Source: Candidatus Woesebacteria bacterium
GTDB taxonomy: Bacteria; Patescibacteriota; Microgenomatia; UBA8517
DNA length: 64,000 bases
Reading direction: 5' to 3'
Assembly: GCA_963784785.1 (NCBI GenBank)
Contig: CAWASW010000005.1
Coordinates: 9,247 to 73,246 of the forward strand
Shown: positions 7,440 through 62,974 of the stretch, in pieces
Position numbering within the stretch: the stretch's first letter is position 1
Layout: the number at the start of each line of letters is the position of its first letter
Program-made: the position numbers and the translations under genes
Notes under the pieces: generated by a model
The model's database searches: none
The model's input: only the letters and a program-made list of their open reading frames with translations
Told to the model about the DNA's origin: nothing

Positions 7440-8040
7440 TTTAGCTCGGACTTATTTTACAACAAATTTTTGATGTTTAGCGGAGCAACAAGGGAGGGGT
7501 TAAAGGGGAAGGAATTGTTGCGGAGCTCGGGTTCCCGCTCAGCTCCGCTACGCGGAGCCTCGCGAACACTGTATGGTCGGACTTCTCGCTCACCCCACTC
7601 CGTGGGGTTCGCTAACCCAATTGTCTAAGGAAAAGGGGGTTTGTAGTCAGTCGCTTGCGAGCGCCTGACGGAGTCCTTGCGGTATACCGCAGGGTACTCA
7701 GTGAATACCGCAAACTAGCCCTATTATAGGGCTTTTGTCCGCATTGCGGTCATGCGGTTGCGGGTGCGGTCACCGCAACGACCTAGAACTCCAAACTTGG
7801 ACATCAAACCTGTACATTTCAGTCGCAATTTGCCCTGTCGGGCAACTACCCAAGTGCTGAAAACAGAACAGGTGCTTTCGCACAGCACTTGGTTAGGAAG
7901 CTGCAGGCATAACAGAACAATTGCTCCTGAAATATCCCTTAACAGGGATCCTGCCCAACACAAAACACCCCAAAGCTACAGGGGTGTGGCTAACGCCATG
8001 TGCGTAGGCAGGAAAACAACACAAAAAAGTCATACCCTAT
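7440..8040 (+). ncRNA. candidate large structured ncRNA, class and strand unresolved
   Basis: About 600 nt with clearly higher GC than flanking DNA and no credible ORF. It holds many perfect short hairpins: GCGGAGCT..AGCTCCGC, CCCCAC-TCC-GTGGGG, AGCCCTA-TTA-TAGGGCT, GCGGTATACCGC, CCAAGTGCTG...CAGCACTTGG enclosing a UUCG-type loop, and ATCCCT-TAAC-AGGGAT. Confidence 0.3.
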
Positions 8041-8279: not shown

Positions 8280-8344
8280 AAAATGGTCAAGCAAAGCAAG
8301 GCATTACAAATGCATCATGATTACTACGTTCGTTTGTACAATCT
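8280..8344. repeat. 65-bp direct target duplication, left copy (IS1634-like copy 1)
   Basis: Identical to 9991..10055; contains the start codon and first 21 codons of the 108-aa gene. Confidence 0.85.
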
Positions 8345-9990
8345 CCTGACTTCGCCAATTAAGTGCCCTGAATAAAAGATAGAAGTTTGGTATTTTTAAG
8401 AAGTTGAAGTTGCTCTGTTGTTGGTTCTGTAAATTTTGATATTTCTTCATTTGAGATTTTGTCTTTGATAGTAATTTCTTTTAAGCTTGATAGAATTTGT
8501 AGTATCTTTTTTGTGCTTTTGTTGTTTTTAATTTCTGCATATCTTGTAATTGCAAGACTGGTAAAAACAATTAACATGTGGGTTAATATTTTTTCTTTGG
8601 CTGTATGAAATATTGGTCTAGCTTGGAGGTCTGATTTTGTGATTCTAAATGCCTTTTCAACTTGCCAGAGTTCTTGATATTTGGTAATTATTTCTGTGTT
8701 TGTTAATTCTAGTGCATTTGTAACATAACCTTTTAAGCCTTCAAGCTGTTCTGCTTTTTTAAGTTTAGCTTCATTTATTTTCCATTCTTTTTTAATTCCC
8801 TTTTCTTTTTTTAGAAATTTGTAGTTTTTAGTTAAGTTGCTTGGATTATTTAGTGCATAATTTGCTCTTTTTAATTGTTTTTCTCTGTCTGATTTGTCTT
8901 TTGATGCTCTTTTGACTGAGTAGTTGATAATTAAAAATTTAGTTTTTGTAAGTTCAAATCTTTCTGTAGAGCCATCTATTTTAGGTACACTAATTACTTT
9001 TTTAAAAATAGTTTTGTCTAAATTACCAAGTCTTGCTCCAACTATAAACTTTAAGTTTTCTTTTTCCAATTCATCTGTATTTTTCTCACTTAACATACCA
9101 GCATCTGCAACAAGAATAATGTCTTTCAAGGAATGCTTTTTGATGAGGTCTTTCATTACAGGAAGCATTGTGTGGCCTTCAAAAGTATTTCCTTCAAAAG
9201 CCTGCATATGAACAGGGAAACCTTGTTTTGTGACTGTTAAGGAAACAACTATTTGAGGTTGATTTGATTTTTTGTCTTTTGAAAAGCCATTTTTTCTAAA
9301 ATCATCTTCTGTAAAAGATTCATAATATAAAGTTGTGACATCAAAAAATAAAACTGAAATTACAGATGAAATATTTGTTTTGGCAAAATTAAATAACAAA
9401 TCCTCAACTATCTCTTTGTAGCCACCATCAAAGGCTTTTTTCATGCCTCTGTAGATTTCTGTAAGTGAGTATTTGTGATTTAATTTCTCTTCAAGATAAT
9501 TTCTAGTTTCAAGTTTTGAAGTTGGATTTAAAATTCTTGCAATAACAAGATCCTTAAAACAATTGTCTTTTAAGTCATTTAAACCTAAAAAATGATAGTA
9601 AAAATCAAAAAAATTGTAAGAGACAGTATCCATTACTTTGCCAAAAGTTACCTTTGAAAGTAGCTCTTTAAGTTCAGATTGATTAAATCTGTTGTCAAAA
9701 AGTGAAATTCTTCCTTCTTTGATACGACAATCATCAATGTATTTTAAGCCTAATTTTGTAAGTTCAATTAGCTCCAACTCATTTCTTGCAGTTCCAATGT
9801 GCTTCACTATTTTTCTTCTTCCTGAAACTTTTTGGGCAACTTGAACTGATGTATTAGATTTGTTTTTGACCTTTCTTAAGTACATTCAAACCTAATTTTA
9901 GCAAATAAAACAGTAAGTGCCCTAAAGTACATAAAAATACAAACAATTAGCCTCAAGAAGTTACATAAAAACTAGGTTGGCGAAGTCAGG
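8345..9990 (-). mobile_element. IS1634-family-like insertion sequence (IS4 superfamily), copy 1, 1646 bp
   Basis: 14-bp terminal inverted repeats CCTGACTTCGCCAA / TTGGCGAAGTCAGG; 508-aa transposase; long flanking direct repeat. Confidence 0.8.
8359..9885 (-). CDS. IS1634-family-like DDE transposase
   Basis: 508 aa; N-terminus MYLRKVKNKSNTSVQVAQKV...IVKHIGTA resembles IS1634-family transposase N-termini; three near-identical copies in the window (one K/E difference). Confidence 0.8.
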   Translation of the reverse strand: MYLRKVKNKSNTSVQVAQKVSGRRKIVKHIGTARNELELIELTKLGLKYIDDCRIKEGRISLFDNRFNQSELKELLSKVTFGKVMDTVSYNFFDFYYHFLGLNDLKDNCFKDLVIARILNPTSKLETRNYLEEKLNHKYSLTEIYRGMKKAFDGGYKEIVEDLLFNFAKTNISSVISVLFFDVTTLYYESFTEDDFRKNGFSKDKKSNQPQIVVSLTVTKQGFPVHMQAFEGNTFEGHTMLPVMKDLIKKHSLKDIILVADAGMLSEKNTDELEKENLKFIVGARLGNLDKTIFKKVISVPKIDGSTERFELTKTKFLIINYSVKRASKDKSDREKQLKRANYALNNPSNLTKNYKFLKKEKGIKKEWKINEAKLKKAEQLEGLKGYVTNALELTNTEIITKYQELWQVEKAFRITKSDLQARPIFHTAKEKILTHMLIVFTSLAITRYAEIKNNKSTKKILQILSSLKEITIKDKISNEEISKFTEPTTEQLQLLKNTKLLSFIQGT

Positions 9991-10055
9991 AAAATGGTCA
10001 AGCAAAGCAAGGCATTACAAATGCATCATGATTACTACGTTCGTTTGTACAATCT
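9991..10055. repeat. 65-bp direct target duplication, right copy (IS copy 1)
   Basis: Identical to 8280..8344. Confidence 0.85.
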
Positions 10056-10320
10056 GATGGAAGGTAATCTCTTACCTGCAGACAGAGAAAACTACAACGC
10101 GGCTATGATATGCGAACGTCAAGGACTTGTCAAACCGTTGCCACAGCCCTGGTATGTAAAAGCTGGGCTTTTGATCGGCATGACAATTGTCTTTTTCGGT
10201 TTGATGCTACTCACATCGCGCTTCGGCGGCTTTTTGGGAGGATTCCAAACACTTGCCTTCTCATTTGAAGGATTGCTTTGGCTTTTGACCTGCGCCGCCA
10301 TCGTGTTCAATCGCAATTAA
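9994..10320 (+). CDS. small two-TM membrane protein; GC-richer than the neighbourhood, probably acquired
   Basis: 108 aa; first 21 codons lie in the IS target duplication, so the ORF is intact but separated from its original upstream region. Confidence 0.5.
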   Translation: MVKQSKALQMHHDYYVRLYNLMEGNLLPADRENYNAAMICERQGLVKPLPQPWYVKAGLLIGMTIVFFGLMLLTSRFGGFLGGFQTLAFSFEGLLWLLTCAAIVFNRN

Positions 10321-10477: not shown

Positions 10478-11221
10478 ATGGTGATGAACAAAAAGAGAAT
10501 ATATGTAATTGGACCATCAGGAAGTGGAAAAACGTATCTTGCTAAAGTAATCTCAAAGCATTTTAACATTCCACATACAAACCTGGATTATGTTTTTTTT
10601 GATCACAAAGTATCTAAAAGTCGTGATGAAGTATCAGATGAAGAGTGGATGAGAAGATTAAATAAGTTAATTGAAGAAGATGATTGGGTTATTGAAGATA
10701 CCGTTGCATAAACGGTCACTTGTTTAGCCTTAAATGATTTGTTGTTTTTCGTTAAAATAATAACACTTTCGTCCGATTACTCGGACAATGCTGAAATTGG
10801 TTGTAGAAGCGTTTACTTAGTGAAACTACCTTTTTAGGCCGAAAGTATAGTAAAATCAGTGTGTTTTAGGAGACCGAAATGTAACGGTCTCGTTATTGAA
10901 GGAGTCAATCCAATTAATGAAGTTTTTGAAATTGCAGATAGAATTATTTTTTTAAGACTAAATATAGTTGAAACGTTAATAAGCCAGTGGGGACGATATC
11001 TAACGGATGAGGTGCAACGCAGAGAACATGGTTTTATCAATAACTTAAAATTATCCAAATATCTTATTAGACAGCACGTAGAAGAAGAAAATTTATCAAA
11101 ATCGGAAGACCCTAAATATTTTAGAATAAGAAAAGTTGATAGAATTTTAAAAAAGTATTCAAACAAAACTGTGATTTTAAACAGCAGAAACGAAGTTAAT
11201 AAATTTATTGAAACTTTATAA
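10478..11221 (+). pseudogene. P-loop NTPase/kinase-like gene (adenylate-kinase-like fold) split by a 195-bp MITE
   Basis: N-part ends ...DWVIED-TVA-stop inside the MITE; C-part resumes ...EGVNPINEVFEIADRIIFL after the MITE; Walker A GPSGSGKT; 9-bp TSD GTTATTGAA on both sides. Confidence 0.65.
10697..10891 (+). mobile_element. 195-bp MITE, copy 1
   Basis: Termini GATACCGTTGCATAAACGGTCAC ... GGAGACCGAAATGTAACGGTCTC (imperfect TIRs, each a hairpin); 9-bp TSD GTTATTGAA at 10688-10696 and 10892-10900. Confidence 0.75.
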
Positions 11222-11724: not shown

Positions 11725-11822
11725 TTTTATTTTACAGAGTCGTGTCTGACGCCCATGTGCATGGACAGGAGAACACCGCCTGCGGGCGTCTGGTACGAAT
11801 ATTTTAGCTTTAAATCCATTTA

Positions 11823-11917
11823 GCTGGCGGTTTACGAAAAATGTCGAACTTCACTTTGTTAGCTCGGCCTTCGGCCTCGCTTGCTCCAGCGCGGCTCCCC
11901 CACCCGCCGCGCCTCCG
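11823..11917. repeat. 95-bp GC-rich inverted repeat, left arm
   Basis: Exact reverse complement of 12968..13062. Confidence 0.85.
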
Positions 11918-11967
11918 CTATTTTTTGCGCGCGATTTTAGGATCAAATATTATAGGGGCGATAAAAT

Positions 11968-12828
11968 CTAATCAACATATTCTATTGTAGTCCAGGCACC
12001 ATTTGCAACAATGGTCGCTGTACCAGATGATCCAGCCCGATCACACATCACTTCGTAATACTCGTTGCTACTGGTTGTCTGAATAAAGACTATTGATGTA
12101 TTTGTTCCGTTGTCATCAGTGTCATTTCTCGAATAGGAATATGTCCCGCTCGGGGTATTATAAGTAGTTCCATTTAAACGCACTCTACAGAGAATATTAG
12201 CTCGCGTACCCGTATTATTGTCACTGCTTACGACGTATGTGAGTTTATACCATCCGGCATTTACTAAATAAACTCTTGAATTGTTCGTGGAAGTGCTATG
12301 AGTAAAATATGTGGTATTGACATAACTTTGTGAATCCCAGCTTATCGCAGTAGGAGTAACGGTATTGATGTCCACCCCCCCCGTAGAATCATAGACTTGT
12401 GTAAACTTTCTTGAAAAGTTGATGTCAGTACCACAAACCCAAGAAGAGCTGCTTGTACTCCATTTTAGGACTTGACCATCGGAACAAGTTGTTAAAAGTG
12501 ATACAGAACTTCCCGAATCCCCTTTGTCTCCCTTGTCACCCTTGTCACCTTTAGTACCAGAATCACCTTTAGCACCAGAATCACCTTTAGCACCAGAATC
12601 ACCTTTAGCACTCGTACTTCCCTTACTCCCTGTATTACCTGCAAGACCTGGAACTCCGGAGGCTTCTTGTATTGCTTGAGGTGTAGTTTTAGCAGTAGGC
12701 GTAGTTGATTCTGGTGATGTAGCTCCTTTTTTCATTGAAAAAAAACTCACTGAGGCGTATACGGCAACAAGCGACCCTAAAAGCAAAAGGATTAGACGGT
12801 ATTTATTCATGCTGTAAATAGTATACAA
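11968..12828 (-). CDS. collagen-like (G-x-y) triple-helix repeat surface protein with non-collagen C-terminal domain (BclA/C1q-like architecture)
   Basis: Signal/TM N-terminus, GDSGAKGDSGAKGDSGTKGDKGDKGDKGDSG repeats, about 170-aa Ser/Thr/Asn-rich C-terminal domain. Confidence 0.65.
   Translation of the reverse strand: MYTIYSMNKYRLILLLLGSLVAVYASVSFFSMKKGATSPESTTPTAKTTPQAIQEASGVPGLAGNTGSKGSTSAKGDSGAKGDSGAKGDSGTKGDKGDKGDKGDSGSSVSLLTTCSDGQVLKWSTSSSSWVCGTDINFSRKFTQVYDSTGGVDINTVTPTAISWDSQSYVNTTYFTHSTSTNNSRVYLVNAGWYKLTYVVSSDNNTGTRANILCRVRLNGTTYNTPSGTYSYSRNDTDDNGTNTSIVFIQTTSSNEYYEVMCDRAGSSGTATIVANGAWTTIEYVD
12530..12625. repeat. tandem 18-bp (6-codon GDSGAK) repeats inside the collagen-like gene
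   Basis: accagaatcacctttagc repeated about 3.5 times. Confidence 0.7.
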
Positions 12829-12967
12829 AAAAAGGGGGTAAATGTCATTGATTAAGCTCTAAGATACTAGTACAACCAGAGCGGCCATTTGAGGTTTAGT
12901 AAAAGTTCTTTAAAATTTTTGCGTTTTTTTATTCCGATTTCATCGGGATTGTTCGAGCCGACAGTTT

Positions 12968-13062
12968 CGGAGGCGCGGCGGGTGGGGGAGCCGCGCTGGA
13001 GCAAGCGAGGCCGAAGGCCGAGCTAACAAAGTGAAGTTCGACATTTTTCGTAAACCGCCAGC
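12968..13062. repeat. 95-bp GC-rich inverted repeat, right arm
   Basis: Exact reverse complement of 11823..11917. Confidence 0.85.
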
Positions 13063-13254
13063 CAGTAAGAATTGGAAAGAGGTCGGGAGGTAGCGCTTTC
13101 CGCGCCCGCCTCCGCGGAAAGCGCGTCAAATCCGCCTTTTTTGAAACTTGCGGACAGCCGCCGGAAAAAGAAGAAAAAAAACGCAAAAATTAGCCTTTCT
13201 CGAAAGAAAGGCACGAGCTACTGCTCGTTAAAGAACTTTTAGGAAAACAAAACA

Positions 13255-13410
13255 ATGATTAAATACATCGCATATTGCAGAAAATCTACTGATGAACCCG
13301 ACAGACAAATCTTGTCTATTGAGGCGCAAGTTGCGGAACTTGAAGAACACGCCGCAAAAGAAAACTTGAAGATAGTGTCTTTTATTACCGAAAGTAAAAC
13401 CGCCAAAGAG
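13255..13410 (+). pseudogene. serine recombinase (large-serine-recombinase-like) N-terminal remnant truncated by a MITE
   Basis: IKYIAYCRKSTDE...LSIEAQ matches the catalytic Ser/Arg motif of serine recombinases; ORF runs into the MITE after 52 codons. Confidence 0.6.
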
Positions 13411-13605
13411 GAGACCGTTACATTTCGGTCTCCTAAAACACACTGATTTTACTATACTTTCGGCCTAAAAAGGTAGTTTCACTAAGTAAACGCTTCTACA
13501 ACCAATTTCAGCATTGTCCGAGTAATCGGACGAAAGTGTTATTATTTTAACGAAAAACAACAAATCATTTAAGGCTAAACAAGTGACCGTTTATGCAACG
13601 GTATC
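13411..13605 (-). mobile_element. 195-bp MITE, copy 2 (inverted orientation)
   Basis: Same 195-bp element; truncates the recombinase gene; lies 6 nt from the 3' end of tRNA-Gln; no clear TSD. Confidence 0.7.
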
Positions 13606-13611
13606 CGTCGT

Positions 13612-13685
13612 TGGCTACGGGTCAGGGACTCGGACCCCGATAAGCAGATCCAGAATCTGCTGTCCTGCCATTAGACGAACCCGTA
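13612..13685 (-). tRNA. tRNA-Gln (anticodon CUG), CCA encoded
   Basis: Manual cloverleaf: acceptor TACGGGT/ACCCGTA with U1-A72 and G73, D-arm GTCT-AATGGCA-GGAC, anticodon arm GCAGA-TTCTGGA-TCTGC, T-arm CGGGG-TCCGAGT-CCCTG (unusual C at position 55). Confidence 0.6.
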
Positions 13686-14283: not shown

Positions 14284-14949
14284 ATGATACGAAAGACTTC
14301 AAAAATTTTATCTAACTTAGAATATTTTGTAAAAGGTAATAACCCAAAACTTCTAATACATTGTGGTACTTATGGAGATGAATACGACGTTGTGAAACAC
14401 GTAGAGAATGCTGTCATAAAGTATGAGGAACAATTGCCAGATTTTGTTTTTGTGCCGATTGTTTCTCCGTCTGCTGTCAAATTGAGAACTCGAATTAACG
14501 ATAACGGAAAAGATTTGAATAGAATATTTTTCTCAGATTCAACTGATCCTGAGGTTTTGGCAAACATAGAAATTATCGGTGAAAACAAATATGACTTGTT
14601 TGTCAGTTTCCATGAGGATTTTGAATTTCCTGATTATTACATCTATGATGAGGGTTTTACTAATCTAAAACAGAATATGATTCTAAATCATAATTCACAA
14701 ATTTCAAAATTAGGATTTACTCTATTCAACGGCATAGATGACCCAATTCTGAATAACGTCTTTTTAAATGGGTACAAAAAAATAGTAATTAACAAAGATA
14801 CAAGAAATAATGGAATGATTACAAGTTGGATGTTATCTGAAGGAAAGGTACTTGATACATTAAATCCTGAAATACCTATGAATTTAGATTCAAATTCAAA
14901 GAAGAAAATTATAGATACATTTTTTGAAAATGTTTTGTGCTATTCTTAA
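14284..14949 (+). CDS. hypothetical protein (weak resemblance to M14/desuccinylase-like hydrolases)
   Basis: 221-aa ORF; HCGTYGDEYD loosely HGG-HGNE-like. Confidence 0.35.
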   Translation: MIRKTSKILSNLEYFVKGNNPKLLIHCGTYGDEYDVVKHVENAVIKYEEQLPDFVFVPIVSPSAVKLRTRINDNGKDLNRIFFSDSTDPEVLANIEIIGENKYDLFVSFHEDFEFPDYYIYDEGFTNLKQNMILNHNSQISKLGFTLFNGIDDPILNNVFLNGYKKIVINKDTRNNGMITSWMLSEGKVLDTLNPEIPMNLDSNSKKKIIDTFFENVLCYS

Positions 14950-15469
14950 ATCTTCTGCACATTAATCCCCAGCCTTTAGGCTGGTGGAGCAAGTATAGTT
15001 TGTGGCATACTTGAGGGAAATGTTAAAGTACTGGCATGGTGCACACACAAAGCACAGAATTATGATTCATTTGGTATTTTTACCAAAATACAGAAAAAGG
15101 ATATTACGTGGCAAAGTAGCTACAAGACTTAAAGACTTATTCTTCAAAGCATGTGAGGTTAACAACTGGTGGATTGAAGAAATTACAATATTGCATGATC
15201 ATGTACATATGCTTATACAAATCCAACCAAACTTGTCCATCTCAAAAGTTGTTAACCAACTGAAAGGTGGTTCATCAAGAATCTTAAGGAAAGAATTTCC
15301 AGAGTTAGAAGAATTTCTTTGGGGTGACTCATTCTGGTCTGATGGCTACTTTGCAGAATCAGTGGGTGCAACAAGTTTCATCCAGGTTAAAAAATACATT
15401 AAAAATCAAGTGGAAAGTATGCCACAGAAGGGGTAAAACCATGGCATTTATGCCATGTGTTTTTTATTG
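14949..15469 (+). mobile_element. IS200/IS605-family element (tnpA only), copy 1, 521 bp
   Basis: Subterminal hairpins CCAGCC-TTTA-GGCTGG (left) and CCATGGCAT-TT-ATGCCATGG (right); identical to copies at 26863 and 37072. Confidence 0.8.
15002..15436 (+). CDS. tnpA: IS200/IS605 family Y1 (HUH) transposase TnpA
   Basis: 144 aa; HuH motif HVHMLIQ and catalytic Tyr region SDGYFAESVG. Confidence 0.85.
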   Translation: MAYLREMLKYWHGAHTKHRIMIHLVFLPKYRKRILRGKVATRLKDLFFKACEVNNWWIEEITILHDHVHMLIQIQPNLSISKVVNQLKGGSSRILRKEFPELEEFLWGDSFWSDGYFAESVGATSFIQVKKYIKNQVESMPQKG

Positions 15470-19945: not shown

Positions 19946-21133
19946 GAGACCGTTCTATTTCGGTCACCTAAAATGAATTGTTTATCTCCTATTTTCAATC
20001 AAAAAAGGTAGTTTCACTCAGTGAACTTGTAGTTAAAATGAGGTATGATTCACGCATGAAAAAAGAGAAAGAGTTTATAGTTGTCCAAAATGTGGGAGTA
20101 TTCACACAATCAGAAAAGGAGTTAGGAGAGGAAAAATTAAGTATTTTTGCAAAATATGTGGAGCTTGGTTTCAGTTAAACAGAAGGCCAAAATTAAACAG
20201 TTCTTCTTTGGTTACAGACCATTTTTTAGGTTTATCATTTAGATCCCTAGGTTCAAAATCAGATGTTTTAGGAAGCACAGCTTACAGAAGATATCAATCT
20301 CAGATTGAAAACAAGTTGCAATGTATTGATATCACAAGACTTTATTGTTCTAAATTTTGTGGAATACTTTTAGTTGATGGAAAATATATCAAAGTTAAAG
20401 GATACGAAAGAAAAATACCAGTTATCTATGGAATTGATTATCTCACACACGACATTGTACATTTTGTGCTTGGTCCATCTGAAAATTACAGATTATTACT
20501 TAAGTTTTTCTCTTCACTAAAGTTATCAAATTATCCACTTCAAGCAATTGTTTCAGATGACAATCAGAACACGCCACAGGCGTGTTTAAAGGTTTATCCT
20601 ACTGCAATCTGGCAACTTTGCCAGAATCACTACAAACAAAATATTAGAGGTACTTTAGGACTTTACAAAGACCTATCACACCTTAAATTTATGAATGAAA
20701 TTGAAGTTCTTTTTTCAAGAAAAATGGAAACAGGAGAATTCAAAAAACTAGCTTCAAAAATATATGACAGATACAAGGGAAACAAACTAGAAACACAAAT
20801 TATGCTTGATATTGCAAAAAGATCTCCTGATCTTTTTGCATATACAAAGGTTCATCATGTTCCTAGAACAAACAACTTAATTGAAAGCTTCAACTCACAT
20901 CTTGAAGGGAGATTAAAAACAATTAAAGGATTTGAAAACTTCAAAACGGCAAAACTCTGGTTAAACCAATATTTTATTAAAAGAAGAACAAAAAAGTTTA
21001 CAGACTGCACAAAACATTTCAAGAATTTAAATGGAAAATGCTCGTTAGAAGTTACCTTAAAAGACCCCTATATTTTAAAAGATGTTTTGAAGCTAATTAA
21101 TTAAAATCAGGTGACCGTTTATGCAACGGTATC
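19946..21133 (+). mobile_element. IS1595-family-like insertion sequence (1188 bp) with TIRs related to the 195-bp MITE
   Basis: IRL GAGACCGTTCTATTTCGGTCACC, IRR GGTGACCGTTTATGCAACGGTATC; encodes a Zn-ribbon plus DDE transposase. Confidence 0.65.
20056..21104 (+). pseudogene. IS1595-family transposase, frameshifted near the 5' end
   Basis: ATG at 20056 followed by an A6 run; Zn-ribbon CPKCGSIHT...CKICGAWF lies in a different frame, continuous with the 298-aa DDE domain ORF (DGKY, SDDN, TNNLIESFNSHLEGRLK motifs). Confidence 0.6.
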
Positions 21134-21143
21134 CAGCGAAGTG

Positions 21144-21338
21144 GAGACCGTTACATTTCGGTCTCCTAAAACACACTGATTTTACTATACTTTCGGCCTA
21201 AAAAGGTAGTTTCACTAAGTAAACGCTTCTACAACCAATTTCAGCATTGTCCGAGTAATCGGACGAAAGTGTTATTATTTTAACGAAAAACAACAAATCA
21301 TTTAAGGCTAAACAAGTGACCGTTTATGCAACGGTATC
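21144..21338 (-). mobile_element. 195-bp MITE, copy 3
   Basis: Complete copy with 9-bp TSD AGCGAAGTG (21135-21143 and 21339-21347); abuts the IS1595-like right end and the tRNA-Glu 3' end. Confidence 0.75.
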
Positions 21339-26690: not shown

Positions 26691-26862
26691 CCTGATGAAT
26701 AAAAAAATATTGTTTGAAAATCTTGTTATAGTGAGAAAATTGAATTTGCTGTCGTCGATAGAAAAAGCAAAAGACGCGAGAGACAATGCTCCGGATGCAA
26801 CTGAAAGTCATTCTGATACTAGGAGAAATCAGGCAGAAAAACTTGTGGTTGCGTTAGAAATT

Positions 26863-39397: not shown

Positions 39398-39723
39398 AAA
39401 TAAAAGTCATTGTAAATGACATGATGCAAAAGGGCTATGAATATCACTTAACTTCTTCGATCGGTAAAGATTTTGACCCTAATTTCACTCCTGAATTAAC
39501 ACCGAAAGAAATGTTAGAACTTGGTGTTTTTGGTGGTAAATACATGACAGATTGCAAAGATGAATTTCCAAAAGATTGGTATAAAAATGCAAAATTATGT
39601 CATGAATTTCATAATCCAAAATTAAATTTTTTCAAAATTAGTGCAAGTGAGTTTCTTTCTGTTTGGAGACAAAAAGGATGGATATTTGATGAAGATCCGA
39701 GAGGATGGGATACCGTTGCATAA
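39394..39723 (+). pseudogene. hypothetical gene interrupted by a MITE and then an IS1634-like element; C-terminal part resumes at 41795-41882
   Basis: Removing the MITE gives an in-frame read-through ...DEDPRGW-FQWYCRYYMGRRNE..., which is the ORF found after the IS (41649-41882). Confidence 0.6.
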
Positions 39724-39903
39724 ACGGTCACTTGTTTAGCCTTAAATGATTTGTTGTTTTTCGTTAAAATAATAACACTTTCGTCCGATTACTCGGACAA
39801 TGCTGAAATTGGTTGTAGAAGCGTTTACTTAGTGAAACTACCTTTTTAGGCCGAAAGTATAGTAAAATCAGTGTGTTTTAGGAGACCGAAATGTAACGGT
39901 CTC
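39709..39903 (+). mobile_element. 195-bp MITE, copy 4
   Basis: 9-bp TSD AGAGGATGG at 39700-39708 and 39904-39912. Confidence 0.75.
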
Positions 39904-40016
39904 AGAGGATGGTTCCAATGGTATTGTAGATATTATATGGGTAGGAGAAATGAAAAAATAGATCAAATTCAGATCGAAAGGTGGAAGTCAATGAAAAGAC
40001 ATATTGCACAACTAGT
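39885..40016. repeat. 132-bp direct target duplication, left copy (IS copy 2); includes the last 19 bp of the MITE
   Basis: Identical to 41663..41794. Confidence 0.85.
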
Positions 40017-41662
40017 CCTGACTTCGCCAACCTAGTTTTTATGTAACTTCTTGAGGCTAATTGTTTGTATTTTTATGTACTTTAGGGCACTTACTGTTTT
40101 ATTTGCTAAAATTAGGTTTGAATGTACTTAAGAAAGGTCAAAAACAAATCTAATACATCAGTTCAAGTTGCCCAAAAAGTTTCAGGAAGAAGAAAAATAG
40201 TGAAGCACATTGGAACTGCAAGAAATGAGTTGGAGCTAATTGAACTTACAAAATTAGGCTTAAAATACATTGATGATTGTCGTATCAAAGAAGGAAGAAT
40301 TTCACTTTTTGACAACAGATTTAATCAATCTGAACTTAAAGAGCTACTTTCAAAGGTAACTTTTGGCAAAGTAATGGATACTGTCTCTTACAATTTTTTT
40401 GATTTTTACTATCATTTTTTAGGTTTAAATGACTTAAAAGACAATTGTTTTAAGGATCTTGTTATTGCAAGAATTTTAAATCCAACTTCAAAACTTGAAA
40501 CTAGAAATTATCTTGAAGAGAAATTAAATCACAAATACTCACTTACAGAAATCTACAGAGGCATGAAAAAAGCCTTTGATGGTGGCTACAAAGAGATAGT
40601 TGAGGATTTGTTATTTAATTTTGCCAAAACAAATATTTCATCTGTAATTTCAGTTTTATTTTTTGATGTCACAACTTTATATTATGAATCTTTTACAGAA
40701 GATGATTTTAGAAAAAATGGCTTTTCAAAAGACAAAAAATCAAATCAACCTCAAATAGTTGTTTCCTTAACAGTCACAAAACAAGGTTTCCCTGTTCATA
40801 TGCAGGCTTTTGAAGGAAATACTTTTGAAGGCCACACAATGCTTCCTGTAATGAAAGACCTCATCAAAAAGCATTCCTTGAAAGACATTATTCTTGTTGC
40901 AGATGCTGGTATGTTAAGTGAGAAAAATACAGATGAATTGGAAAAAGAAAACTTAAAGTTTATAGTTGGAGCAAGACTTGGTAATTTAGACAAAACTATT
41001 TTTGAAAAAGTAATTAGTGTACCTAAAATAGATGGCTCTACAGAAAGATTTGAACTTACAAAAACTAAATTTTTAATTATCAACTACTCAGTCAAAAGAG
41101 CATCAAAAGACAAATCAGACAGAGAAAAACAATTAAAAAGAGCAAATTATGCACTAAATAATCCAAGCAACTTAACTAAAAACTACAAATTTCTAAAAAA
41201 AGAAAAGGGAATTAAAAAAGAATGGAAAATAAATGAAGCTAAACTTAAAAAAGCAGAACAGCTTGAAGGCTTAAAAGGTTATGTTACAAATGCACTAGAA
41301 TTAACAAACACAGAAATAATTACCAAATATCAAGAACTCTGGCAAGTTGAAAAGGCATTTAGAATCACAAAATCAGACCTCCAAGCTAGACCAATATTTC
41401 ATACAGCCAAAGAAAAAATATTAACCCACATGTTAATTGTTTTTACCAGTCTTGCAATTACAAGATATGCAGAAATTAAAAACAACAAAAGCACAAAAAA
41501 GATACTACAAATTCTATCAAGCTTAAAAGAAATTACTATCAAAGACAAAATCTCAAATGAAGAAATATCAAAATTTACAGAACCAACAACAGAGCAACTT
41601 CAACTTCTTAAAAATACCAAACTTCTATCTTTTATTCAGGGCACTTAATTGGCGAAGTCAGG
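40017..41662 (+). mobile_element. IS1634-family-like insertion sequence, copy 2
   Basis: Same 1646-bp element and TIRs as copy 1. Confidence 0.8.
40122..41648 (+). CDS. IS1634-family-like DDE transposase
   Basis: 508 aa, identical to copy 3. Confidence 0.8.
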   Translation: MYLRKVKNKSNTSVQVAQKVSGRRKIVKHIGTARNELELIELTKLGLKYIDDCRIKEGRISLFDNRFNQSELKELLSKVTFGKVMDTVSYNFFDFYYHFLGLNDLKDNCFKDLVIARILNPTSKLETRNYLEEKLNHKYSLTEIYRGMKKAFDGGYKEIVEDLLFNFAKTNISSVISVLFFDVTTLYYESFTEDDFRKNGFSKDKKSNQPQIVVSLTVTKQGFPVHMQAFEGNTFEGHTMLPVMKDLIKKHSLKDIILVADAGMLSEKNTDELEKENLKFIVGARLGNLDKTIFEKVISVPKIDGSTERFELTKTKFLIINYSVKRASKDKSDREKQLKRANYALNNPSNLTKNYKFLKKEKGIKKEWKINEAKLKKAEQLEGLKGYVTNALELTNTEIITKYQELWQVEKAFRITKSDLQARPIFHTAKEKILTHMLIVFTSLAITRYAEIKNNKSTKKILQILSSLKEITIKDKISNEEISKFTEPTTEQLQLLKNTKLLSFIQGT

Positions 41663-41794
41663 ACCGAAATGTAACGGTCTCAGAGGATGGTTCCAATGGT
41701 ATTGTAGATATTATATGGGTAGGAGAAATGAAAAAATAGATCAAATTCAGATCGAAAGGTGGAAGTCAATGAAAAGACATATTGCACAACTAGT
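41663..41794. repeat. 132-bp direct target duplication, right copy
   Basis: Identical to 39885..40016. Confidence 0.85.
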
Positions 41795-60165: not shown

Positions 60166-60897
60166 ATGGATACCAATACTATTTTAACACCACATGGTAC
60201 TATTCTCGTATCAGTACCTGAAGGAAAGCAACGTTTTCAGTTCACCCTTAACGGTCAGCTGATCACCGAGCCTGTTCACAGCCTCGTGGCTACACTCAAA
60301 ACCGCACGCGCAGATTTCCAGTATGTGTACGGCATGGGACCGGACGGTTGGGATGACATCACTCGTCGTGAGACTGGTGGTGGTGGTGTCGGTGATGTCG
60401 TATTCTCGATCATCAAGCGTGATCTTTGGATTGGCTTGGTCGAGCAAACGCGCGCCTATCAATCGATTGACCCGATTAAGAACATCCTTCGCGGTTACCT
60501 CGTTTCGGGCGAAACTCGTGAACAACGCGCAGTATCAACGGCTAAAACAGACGGCGGTATGGATCAGTTTTTGATCTTCCCTCTGCCTGGCGCGCCGCAA
60601 AACACCAATAACGCGTTTAACGAAACTTGGCAAAACGGCGGTGATGGCATAACCGACTGCGGCATATTCGTTCCGAGCAAGCATCTTGTTGCAAAAGATG
60701 ATACATATGTATTTAAGCCCAATGTAATCAATCCTCCTAGTGATCAAACACGCAAGATCCTTGGATGTCATTTCATCCACTGGGCAGACTCTGCTCGGCT
60801 TGGTGATATGATGACCACATCCGGCGGTTATCGTCTCATGGCTTTCTTGCATGAAATTGGTGTTATGAAAGCCTCTTTCAGCAGGTTCGATTCGTAA
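60166..60897 (+). CDS. hypothetical protein encoded in a strongly GC-rich (foreign-looking) segment
   Basis: 243-aa ORF with own RBS AAGGAG; GC visibly far above the flanks (many GCG/CGC/GGC codons). Confidence 0.5.
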   Translation: MDTNTILTPHGTILVSVPEGKQRFQFTLNGQLITEPVHSLVATLKTARADFQYVYGMGPDGWDDITRRETGGGGVGDVVFSIIKRDLWIGLVEQTRAYQSIDPIKNILRGYLVSGETREQRAVSTAKTDGGMDQFLIFPLPGAPQNTNNAFNETWQNGGDGITDCGIFVPSKHLVAKDDTYVFKPNVINPPSDQTRKILGCHFIHWADSARLGDMMTTSGGYRLMAFLHEIGVMKASFSRFDS

Positions 60898-60996: not shown

Positions 60997-61162
60997 AGTT
61001 TTGCCTGTGTGGTATTTGTAAATAAAAGTTTGAATTAAAAAATCAAATAATAAAAAACAATACCGCACGGCAAGAACAAATTCTCCAAAAAGGACTATTT
61101 TGATACTTGACTTTATGTTTAGCCCTGCTAATATACAAATATGTATATAAAAAGGTCTGTTT
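60997..61162. repeat. 166-bp direct target duplication, left copy (IS copy 3)
   Basis: Identical to 62809..62974; contains the promoter region and first 7 codons of the downstream AAA ATPase gene. Confidence 0.85.
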
Positions 61163-62808
61163 CCTGACTTCGCCAATTAAGTGCCCTGAATAAAAGATAG
61201 AAGTTTGGTATTTTTAAGAAGTTGAAGTTGCTCTGTTGTTGGTTCTGTAAATTTTGATATTTCTTCATTTGAGATTTTGTCTTTGATAGTAATTTCTTTT
61301 AAGCTTGATAGAATTTGTAGTATCTTTTTTGTGCTTTTGTTGTTTTTAATTTCTGCATATCTTGTAATTGCAAGACTGGTAAAAACAATTAACATGTGGG
61401 TTAATATTTTTTCTTTGGCTGTATGAAATATTGGTCTAGCTTGGAGGTCTGATTTTGTGATTCTAAATGCCTTTTCAACTTGCCAGAGTTCTTGATATTT
61501 GGTAATTATTTCTGTGTTTGTTAATTCTAGTGCATTTGTAACATAACCTTTTAAGCCTTCAAGCTGTTCTGCTTTTTTAAGTTTAGCTTCATTTATTTTC
61601 CATTCTTTTTTAATTCCCTTTTCTTTTTTTAGAAATTTGTAGTTTTTAGTTAAGTTGCTTGGATTATTTAGTGCATAATTTGCTCTTTTTAATTGTTTTT
61701 CTCTGTCTGATTTGTCTTTTGATGCTCTTTTGACTGAGTAGTTGATAATTAAAAATTTAGTTTTTGTAAGTTCAAATCTTTCTGTAGAGCCATCTATTTT
61801 AGGTACACTAATTACTTTTTCAAAAATAGTTTTGTCTAAATTACCAAGTCTTGCTCCAACTATAAACTTTAAGTTTTCTTTTTCCAATTCATCTGTATTT
61901 TTCTCACTTAACATACCAGCATCTGCAACAAGAATAATGTCTTTCAAGGAATGCTTTTTGATGAGGTCTTTCATTACAGGAAGCATTGTGTGGCCTTCAA
62001 AAGTATTTCCTTCAAAAGCCTGCATATGAACAGGGAAACCTTGTTTTGTGACTGTTAAGGAAACAACTATTTGAGGTTGATTTGATTTTTTGTCTTTTGA
62101 AAAGCCATTTTTTCTAAAATCATCTTCTGTAAAAGATTCATAATATAAAGTTGTGACATCAAAAAATAAAACTGAAATTACAGATGAAATATTTGTTTTG
62201 GCAAAATTAAATAACAAATCCTCAACTATCTCTTTGTAGCCACCATCAAAGGCTTTTTTCATGCCTCTGTAGATTTCTGTAAGTGAGTATTTGTGATTTA
62301 ATTTCTCTTCAAGATAATTTCTAGTTTCAAGTTTTGAAGTTGGATTTAAAATTCTTGCAATAACAAGATCCTTAAAACAATTGTCTTTTAAGTCATTTAA
62401 ACCTAAAAAATGATAGTAAAAATCAAAAAAATTGTAAGAGACAGTATCCATTACTTTGCCAAAAGTTACCTTTGAAAGTAGCTCTTTAAGTTCAGATTGA
62501 TTAAATCTGTTGTCAAAAAGTGAAATTCTTCCTTCTTTGATACGACAATCATCAATGTATTTTAAGCCTAATTTTGTAAGTTCAATTAGCTCCAACTCAT
62601 TTCTTGCAGTTCCAATGTGCTTCACTATTTTTCTTCTTCCTGAAACTTTTTGGGCAACTTGAACTGATGTATTAGATTTGTTTTTGACCTTTCTTAAGTA
62701 CATTCAAACCTAATTTTAGCAAATAAAACAGTAAGTGCCCTAAAGTACATAAAAATACAAACAATTAGCCTCAAGAAGTTACATAAAAACTAGGTTGGCG
62801 AAGTCAGG
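61163..62808 (-). mobile_element. IS1634-family-like insertion sequence, copy 3
   Basis: Same 1646-bp element and TIRs. Confidence 0.8.
61177..62703 (-). CDS. IS1634-family-like DDE transposase
   Basis: 508 aa, identical to copy 2. Confidence 0.8.
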   Translation of the reverse strand: MYLRKVKNKSNTSVQVAQKVSGRRKIVKHIGTARNELELIELTKLGLKYIDDCRIKEGRISLFDNRFNQSELKELLSKVTFGKVMDTVSYNFFDFYYHFLGLNDLKDNCFKDLVIARILNPTSKLETRNYLEEKLNHKYSLTEIYRGMKKAFDGGYKEIVEDLLFNFAKTNISSVISVLFFDVTTLYYESFTEDDFRKNGFSKDKKSNQPQIVVSLTVTKQGFPVHMQAFEGNTFEGHTMLPVMKDLIKKHSLKDIILVADAGMLSEKNTDELEKENLKFIVGARLGNLDKTIFEKVISVPKIDGSTERFELTKTKFLIINYSVKRASKDKSDREKQLKRANYALNNPSNLTKNYKFLKKEKGIKKEWKINEAKLKKAEQLEGLKGYVTNALELTNTEIITKYQELWQVEKAFRITKSDLQARPIFHTAKEKILTHMLIVFTSLAITRYAEIKNNKSTKKILQILSSLKEITIKDKISNEEISKFTEPTTEQLQLLKNTKLLSFIQGT

Positions 62809-62974
62809 AGTTTTGCCTGTGTGGTATTTGTAAATAAAAGTTTGAATTAAAAAATCAAATAATAAAAAACAATACCGCACGGCAAGAACAAATTCTCCAA
62901 AAAGGACTATTTTGATACTTGACTTTATGTTTAGCCCTGCTAATATACAAATATGTATATAAAAAGGTCTGTTT
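62809..62974. repeat. 166-bp direct target duplication, right copy
   Basis: Identical to 60997..61162. Confidence 0.85.

Follow-up and report, generated by a model that had tools for sequence, protein, structure and literature searches.

A decayed copy of a small integrative element found at tRNA-Gln across Patescibacteria probably accounts for perfect 95-bp inverted repeats around a collagen-like gene

We analysed a 64,000-nt stretch of a Candidatus Woesebacteria genome (contig CAWASW010000005.1 of assembly GCA_963784785.1; hereafter the window), in which an odd GC-rich inverted repeat frames a gene for a collagen-like fibre protein beside the start of a serine recombinase gene. The repeat is explained by comparison with related loci, which indicates that positions 11823-13403 are probably the decayed remains of a small integrative element that inserts at a specific site and occurs widely among Microgenomates/Patescibacteria, the bacteria of the candidate phyla radiation (CPR). 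This reading is carried by direct observations of the element's architecture, its junction with tRNA-Gln, its sharp distal boundary, the domains of its recombinase and the variability of its cargo, obtained by mapping the modules of the window onto 162 related loci (L-numbers) and by tblastn with the full-length recombinase. An earlier reading of the window by itself (the original prediction) had proposed a module resembling a cassette and linked to a large serine recombinase or, as a second option, the relic of an integrative element carrying a fibre gene; the comparison supports both and takes them considerably further. Full-text literature searches found no description of such an element in CPR bacteria, and the family is apparently undescribed.

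The two arms, a and a', measure 95 nt each, are 100% complementary and enclose a 1050-nt spacer with the collagen-like gene on its minus strand, as originally described. None of 100 dinucleotide-preserving shuffles produced a match, and the arm sequence occurs nowhere else in the window. Across the related loci we found 60 distinct copies of homologous arms with a sharp outer boundary and variable host DNA beyond it. The arm is strongly conserved over its full length, and its central hairpin occurs in three variants that all keep their pairing. That the repeat arose by chance, by misassembly or as a private recent inverted duplication has negligible probability. Such an origin would suit the absence of an exact match to an arm 28-mer in three public collections (viral, genome and metagenome; a 33-mer had none either), but the shuffles argue against it, as do 95-nt arm pairs of 84-96% identity that recur with this architecture in independently made assemblies from many studies. 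Dispersal of the arms elsewhere had been named in advance as a result that would refute the original prediction; the arms do recur across genomes, but always in the same architecture, which recasts the idea rather than refuting it.

In at least 30 of the 162 loci the modules follow the same order, which in the orientation of the window runs arm a (positions 1 to 95), a cargo of 0.8-2.7 kb, module U, arm a' (95 to 1), region C (1 to about 192), the recombinase, and an inverted copy of C (C', 101 to 1), followed by the 3' end of tRNA-Gln. Cargo is read leftwards and the recombinase rightwards, and intact elements span 3.5-5 kb. A repeat search independently returned 95-97-nt arm pairs beside 102-137-nt C pairs flanking the recombinase (L024, L008, L021). 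Since U repeats the recombinase leader in inverted orientation and C' is inverted relative to C, each gene module consists of a repeat, a leader, a gene and an inverted repeat, and the two modules stand head to head. U is kept beside the recombinase-proximal arm in about 30 loci; in the window the relationship is visible as a weaker inverted repeat in which 12895-12941, upstream of the collagen gene, pairs with 13164-13246, upstream of the recombinase.

The borders of the cargo carry further traces of the recombinase gene. The last 17 nt of U (12951-12967) are the antisense of recombinase codons KTVGSN, and the B remnant at the inner end of the distal arm has the same 16-21 nt after the distal arms of L044, L045, L104, L029 and L150, a sequence found within the 3' coding region of the recombinase. 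The stretches for KIARAKNS and KTVGSN stand on either side of a 24-nt mini-palindrome in that gene. Matching the 3' part of the gene as they do, B and the U tail make the cassette borders homologous to the recombinase 3' region.

The family is broadly distributed. The right arm, 13063-13254 and the recombinase start share 80-100% DNA identity with more than 100 contigs from many Microgenomates/Patescibacteria lineages, and 12883-13409 is 82-86% identical at the DNA level to L005 and L007, including the non-coding right arm, C and the recombinase start. The recombinase fragment itself has dozens of near-identical short relatives in CPR metagenomes. A 22-mer of region C (TTGAAACTTGCGGACAGCCGCC) occurs in 35 GTDB genomes, almost all Patescibacteria, with Roizman-, Woese-, Ames-, Levy-, Gottesman-, Collier-, Daviesbacteria and others representing the Microgenomates group, and in more than 120 metagenome contigs; it is often present as an inverted pair about 1.5 kb apart, in genomes and contigs alike, and is absent from viral contigs.

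The recombinase is 502-509 aa long and about 90% identical across loci. Full-length copies (for example L018 4934-6442) contain PF00239, PF07508 and PF13408, that is, Resolvase, Recombinase and Zn_ribbon_recom, which makes the enzyme a large serine recombinase, the type originally proposed from the catalytic motif. In NCBIfam it is weakly similar to XisF and CcrA/B/C, with all scores far below the family cut-offs, and the sequence match in the PDB is a catalytic-domain fragment only. In the window, aa 1-52 are 98% identical to the 502-aa recombinase of L018 (tblastn), and the reverse strand of C encodes the tail of the enzyme, aa 466-500, with 97% identity. Translation with the alternative genetic code of table 25 was considered and rejected.

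Comparison of repeat copies revealed that arms are on average 97.7% identical within elements (6 of 18 pairs perfect) and 91.3% between them; C copies have a median identity of 98% within elements and 89% between. The two copies of each repeat thus evolve in concert, which points to occasional recombination between them. The perfect identity of the window's arms, which the original prediction had read as a sign of recent copying or homogenisation, is real but is a trait of the family and nothing special to this locus.

Table 1. Coordinates of the features of the element copy in the window, with serine recombinase genes near the element in other loci in the last row
Feature	Position	Strand	Remarks
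Distal arm a (positions 1 to 95)	11823-11917	+	Matches 12968-13062 exactly in inverted orientation; forms the element's left end
B remnant	11918-11938	+	At the inner end of the distal arm; antisense of recombinase codons KIARAKNS; includes a T-run
Cargo gene (collagen-like)	11968-12828	-	Pfam Collagen, E=4e-8; likely start ATG at 12810
18-bp in-frame tandem repeat (GDSGAK collagen units)	12545-12611	-	Tandem Repeats Finder (TRF): 3.7 copies, 97% matches
Sigma-70-like promoter candidate	12820-12848	-	Inside the arm-bounded segment; ATGACA-17-TATACT, 10/12 matches; consensus match only
Module U	12883-12967	+	Inverted partial copy of the recombinase 5' leader (s')
Proximal arm a'	12968-13062	-	82-96% identical to the C-adjacent arm in dozens of loci
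Region C (1-101)	13063-13163	+	Duplicates, in inverted orientation, the recombinase 3' end and the element's tRNA-side end (P' half-site)
Recombinase leader s'	13164-13254	+	Conserved upstream of the recombinase ATG; two small predicted hairpins
Large serine recombinase, first ca. 50 codons	13255-13403	+	Catalytic serine motif YCRKS; open reading frame (ORF) 13255-13446; Pfam Resolvase, aa 5-52
Miniature inverted-repeat transposable element (MITE) copy	13404-13605	+	In place of recombinase aa ca. 53-502 and the tRNA-side C copy
tRNA-Gln(CTG)	13612-13685	-	ARAGORN and Rfam; presumed original integration target
Second recombinase genes	L047 229-1704; L091 7268-8740; L023 3005-4375; L061 244-1701; L136 12941-14374

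The ends of the element identify its integration site. In most loci a tRNA 3' end adjoins the recombinase-distal C copy on its outer side (...GGTTCGAATCC....GCAGC/CAGTAAG, the slash marking the junction), and ARAGORN assigned tRNA-Gln (CTG or TTG) in about 40 of the 45 loci with a tRNA call and tRNA-Trp in one. The tRNA-Gln 3' end overlaps C by 2 nt. At the other end the element stops at arm position 1, beyond which lies host DNA that is unrelated between loci and shows no target duplication. A junction census counted 35 cases of arm/C leading into the recombinase 5' end and 52 of tRNA/C leading into its 3' end. With C as the tRNA-side end and the arm as the distal end, the phage-type attachment site (attP) of a circular form must be arm/C, a sequence (in the window 12968-13062 joined to 13063 onward) that lies inverted within every integrated element. 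The recombinase ORF crosses the attachment junction: it ends in ...YW/LPG and a stop codon in antisense tRNA, and beside an arm it would end in ...YW/LAVYEKCRTSLC and a stop.

These junctions also bear on whether the locus could be a transposon or an insertion sequence (IS)-like element with 95-bp terminal inverted repeats and a passenger gene, inserting at many target sites. Long terminal inverted repeats around a gene in an IS- and MITE-rich genome would suit such an element, but no target-site duplication accompanies the arm ends and no arm-bounded unit stands alone in host DNA anywhere in the 162-locus map. One arm always adjoins C and the composite is always at tRNA-Gln, so insertion is site-specific, and we consider a transposon very improbable.

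The outer end of the distal arm mimics a tRNA 3' end, reading AAGTTCGACATTTTTCGTAAACCGCCAGC up to the junction and so resembling GGTTCGAATCC....GCAGC/ of the tRNA. Both contain the motif TTCGA, whose distance from the junction is 26 nt in arms and 21 nt in the tRNA-Gln flanks, so that it stands 5 bp further out in the arms. In serine integrases the motif for the zinc-ribbon domain in attP is shifted 5 bp outward relative to the bacterial site attB (PMC3783163), and the offset between arm and tRNA matches this rule. On the same sequence grounds, the distal arm would be the P-type half of a predicted attR, and the proximal arm together with 13063 onward a predicted attP.

Together these observations suggest the following scheme. 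The recombinase would integrate a circle carrying attP (a'/C) into the 3' end of tRNA-Gln (attB), and the products would be attL (tRNA/C) and attR (a'/host). Each integrated element would then hold an internal, inverted and intact copy of its own attP sequence, and as a consequence inverted arms would enclose the cargo module and inverted C copies the recombinase module. We also attempted to derive the internal copy from tandem or nested integrations, and no derivation scheme fitted.

Several points weigh against the integrative element. Insertion into tRNA genes is atypical of serine integrases and usual for tyrosine integrases. To our knowledge, none of the serine integrases described so far would recombine attP with either attL or attR. 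No candidate gene for a recombination directionality factor was found in the elements, and the scheme assigns no role to the internal inverted attP. Excision to a circle is a predicted step of the scheme. In the window itself the tRNA is followed by ACGACGG and then the MITE rather than C; as the tRNA/C junction is lost here, integration at this particular tRNA is read from position and orientation only.

The strand and position of the window tRNA-Gln nevertheless agree with those in intact elements such as L018, and the way this copy decayed can be proposed. The original prediction of a serine recombinase start beyond the right arm, cut by a MITE, proved correct, with the break at 13404 after about 50 codons. 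The MITE is about 196-200 nt long with hairpins at both ends, and the window contains four near-identical copies (10697-10898, 13404-13605, 21139-21338 and 39708-39903); none of the 162 related loci has a counterpart of it. Three copies carry 9-bp target duplications (TTCAATAAC, AGCGAAGTG and CCATCCTCT) and the one at 13404-13605 does not, which suggests that recombination between two MITE copies removed recombinase aa 53-502 or thereabouts and the tRNA-side C. A MITE-associated deletion would thus have taken most of the recombinase and the tRNA-side end. No second copy of the recombinase exists within the window, and with the gene cut off this element copy is immobile unless served in trans. 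Two MITE copies are each separated by 6 nt from a tRNA 3' end, one from that of tRNA-Gln and the other from that of tRNA-Glu, and a solo MITE end is present at 21105-21134.

The GC-rich sequence that had been noted beyond both arms is present, and its two sides are unlike. To the right, 13063-13254 is a conserved part of the element. The left flank, 11727-11822, has no counterpart in the 162 loci and hence is not part of the element family; it is a GC-rich stretch of 96 nt with a long hairpin between a GNAT gene and the left arm. RNA folding of 12890-13260 is strong (z about -6.5) because of the nested inverted repeats, and that of the left flank plus arm is no better than shuffles (z = 0.1). 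Searches of the GC-rich parts against Rfam at gathering or E-value thresholds returned no family. Another GC-rich block of about 540 nt (7470-8010, about 55% GC in a 33% GC genome) is apparently non-coding and has neither an Rfam match nor a counterpart in the 162 loci; the sequence at its right end (7983-8020) is similar to 11738-11777, which immediately precedes the left arm.

We compared the genes carried between the arms. Among 18 elements that retain both arms intact, the cargo is hardly ever the same twice; it reads from U to the distal arm and has host-like GC content. Pfam assignments include cupin, peptide deformylase, family-3 glycosyltransferase, HD domain, EamA transporter, SAM hydroxide adenosyltransferase, RmlD-like epimerase, Asp/Glu racemase and a beta-lactamase fold, and there are several secreted or membrane proteins without a recognised family. 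In the window, a collagen-like fibre protein occupies this place, and we conclude that its gene is horizontally acquired cargo of an integrative element.

The cargo protein of the window consists of an N-terminal hydrophobic stretch (a putative signal or transmembrane anchor), collagen repeats and a C-terminal domain of about 145 aa that is TNF/BclA-like. An AlphaFold model of this domain from a 4-sequence alignment is all-beta (pLDDT 64, pTM 0.59). Foldseek with the model retrieved TNF-family ligands (4-1BBL), F-BclA (9h38), ExsFA (7r1m), a phage spike knob and Bdellovibrio fibre tips at E-values of 1e-4 to 1e-5 and TM scores of 0.45-0.69 (0.55-0.69 for F-BclA). We therefore assign the domain with modest confidence to the TNF/BclA-like jelly rolls, in line with the earlier guess of a BclA/C1q-like fibre. 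Like BclA and C1q/TNF-like fibres, the protein has a hydrophobic N-terminal stretch (putative anchor), G-X-Y repeats and a C-terminal all-beta jelly roll, whereas sequence identity is just 10-20% and confidence in the model of the cargo domain (pLDDT 64, 4-sequence alignment) is modest. An in-frame 18-bp tandem repeat, previously placed at 12530-12625, is real and is delimited more narrowly by TRF (Table 1).

The C-terminal domain has 690 cluster representatives, often within giant multidomain proteins of uncultured bacteria, and the closest homologues occur in CPR-like gene neighbourhoods without the element. Exact-protein look-ups of the collagen protein (with both starts) and of the neighbouring superoxide dismutase gave no match. 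Against phage records the island matched via the collagen repeat only, and against plasmid collections it had no match.

The original prediction also offered the 1050-bp segment as a candidate for inversion. As an active phase-variable switch it would be flipped between the arms by the serine recombinase or by homologous recombination, turning the surface fibre gene on or off. Perfect inverted repeats around a surface-protein gene beside a serine recombinase would be expected of a switch, and so would arms that evolve in concert. Some elements also depart from the common orientation: the recombinase module is reversed in L022, L043 and L045, B-type sequence lies beside the C-proximal arm in L029 and L150, and several derivatives of the L032 type exist. 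However, the cargo is oriented alike, with U adjoining, at about 31 of 33 C-proximal arms (L029 and L150 being the exceptions, both of which resemble tandem or rearranged arrays), and the recombinase is oriented alike at 87 of 90 junctions (all but L022, L043 and L045). The orientation exceptions are mostly deletion derivatives. The cargo of relatives consists mostly of enzymes and transporters rather than phase-variable antigens, and the window recombinase is truncated with no second copy in the window. Since the promoter-like site (a consensus match only) lies inside the segment, flipping would not obviously change expression of the cargo; a second such site, again only a consensus match, lies in U and is directed towards the recombinase. 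Deletion derivatives such as L022 and those of the L032/L033/L117/L147/L148 type are derivable only from flipped states, which implies inversion on evolutionary time scales, and the stable orientation across elements argues against a fast switch. We consider an active switch improbable, and the claim of an actively invertible segment is not supported.

The derivatives of the element retain its ends. At tRNA-Gln in five loci (L039 2052-2352, L062, L093, L105 and L014) we found miniature, gene-free forms of about 235 nt composed of C(1-101), a linker of about 15 nt, the 17-nt U tail and an arm. Recombinase-less forms of the L009 type have the order tRNA/C, leader, cargo and arm. Both the miniatures and the recombinase-less forms keep the two element ends. 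L157 is a rearranged variant with a collapsed C'/C palindrome (1119-1219) downstream of the recombinase 3' end, at the expected place of the tRNA.

We also weighed an integron-like system built on a serine recombinase, in which the arms would be cassette sites, with head-to-head arms (a'/a palindromes) comparable to attC and the a'/C junction to attI; excision, insertion and exchange of cargo cassettes would then not involve the element as a whole. This is compatible with the integrative element, and we hold it as a tentative possibility. The recombinase is divergent from the cargo and a single variable slot lies at a fixed place, as in an integron. Two-cassette arrays are split by a collapsed arm palindrome (L005 and L045) or, counting L150 as well, by a palindrome or an a'/C junction, and the central hairpin of the arm shows compensatory changes, with 13 and 6 double changes at two pairs. 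L047 (1232-1849) and L110 (1-618), from sibling samples, share 618 nt of host flank and distal arm at 100% identity, beyond which their cargo is unrelated and their recombinase modules are 87% identical (13% divergent). Against this, most elements hold a single cassette, and no full a'/a palindrome or free cassette circle was seen. The L047/L110 pair could be due either to a real swap of a cassette or an element or to contigs joined at a 122-nt repeat during assembly. Known serine integrases, moreover, do not recombine two attP-type sites (PMC3783163). A broader proposal, which we put forward just as tentatively, is that the family is a CPR-specific serine-recombinase cassette platform in which duplicated inverted attachment arms make both modules invertible, exchangeable or stackable.

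Additional genes accompany the element in some loci. An extra ORF lies between the leader and the recombinase in L018 (4422-4937, a 171-aa P-loop kinase-like protein) and in L007 (294-980, 228 aa); these look like cargo, in a second cargo slot. Second, divergent large serine recombinase genes, 31-52% identical, are found near the element in several loci (Table 1), and the tRNA-Gln neighbourhood may collect several serine-recombinase elements.

By its enzyme and its site logic the integrative element is a serine-integrase element, and it differs from those described. With serine-integrase elements and prophages (phiC31, Bxb1, A118/LI, SPbeta, SCCmec Ccr and XisF) it shares a single enzyme with Resolvase, Recombinase and zinc-ribbon domains, site-specific insertion, the 5-bp-offset attachment motif and a recombinase gene at one end of the element. 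Unlike them, it targets a tRNA 3' end, is tiny (3.5-5 kb, a recombinase and 1-3 cargo genes), contains an internal inverted duplicate of both attachment arms (95 and 101 nt), and has miniature and recombinase-less derivatives; its recombinase ORF runs through the attachment site to end in antisense tRNA, and no directionality factor was seen.

The tycheposons of Prochlorococcus are likewise small, tRNA-targeting cargo elements of streamlined genomes with variable adaptive cargo at a defined position. They are 10-20 kb long and carry a lineage-specific tyrosine recombinase and replication modules, a minority using a large serine recombinase (bioRxiv 10.1101/2020.12.28.424599). They lack long duplicated inverted arms, and none of the elements examined here has a tyrosine integrase or replication module. 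Integrons resemble the CPR element in having a recombinase divergent from a slot of exchangeable, unrelated genes, palindromic cassette borders of conserved structure and occasional short arrays. An integron typically holds promoterless cassettes in an array, with imperfect palindromic attC sites between them. The CPR element, by contrast, uses a serine rather than a tyrosine recombinase, its cassettes have a leader/promoter module of their own, it usually holds one cassette, and the platform is itself a tRNA-integrating mobile element; its sole conserved gene is the serine recombinase, and no IntI tyrosine recombinase is present. As in the yeast 2-micron plasmid and the Hin/Gin segments, long inverted repeats split the predicted circle into two arcs, one with the recombinase, the repeats are homogenised within each element, and rare flipped isomers occur. 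In contrast to those systems, there is no evidence of frequent flipping and no replication function, and the enzyme is neither a small serine invertase nor an FLP-type tyrosine recombinase.

The element is a concrete route by which accessory genes may move among reduced CPR genomes. Patescibacteria are a huge and mostly uncultured group in which few mobile elements have been described and for which genetic tools barely exist, and the element is compact and about 90% conserved across lineages. A defined recombinase, a predicted attP sequence and a universal target, tRNA-Gln, make it a candidate integration system for CPR genetics, and the recombinase could add a further orthogonal serine integrase for genome engineering. 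If the cassette reading holds, streamlined episymbionts would swap single accessory genes at tRNA-Gln, in a manner unlike that of integrons or serine-integrase prophages. The internal inverted attP, the ORF that ends in antisense tRNA and the 235-nt miniatures may reveal new regulation or use of serine integrases.

Elsewhere in the window, a P-loop kinase-like gene (AAA_18, 10478-11221) is split by the MITE copy at 10697-10898, and its reading frame resumes beyond. A 1648-nt DDE (IS4-like) element is present in three 100% identical copies (8344-9991, 40016-41663 and 61162-62809), and a 65-nt direct repeat (8280-8344 and 9991-10055), a duplication of the beginning of ORF 9994-10320, stands on both sides of the first copy. 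An IS200-type element with a Y1 transposase likewise has three identical copies, one at 14946-15436 and two starting at 26861 and 37070. A 243-aa ORF at 60166-60897, with about 50% GC and no Pfam match, adjoins an IS copy and is probably foreign.

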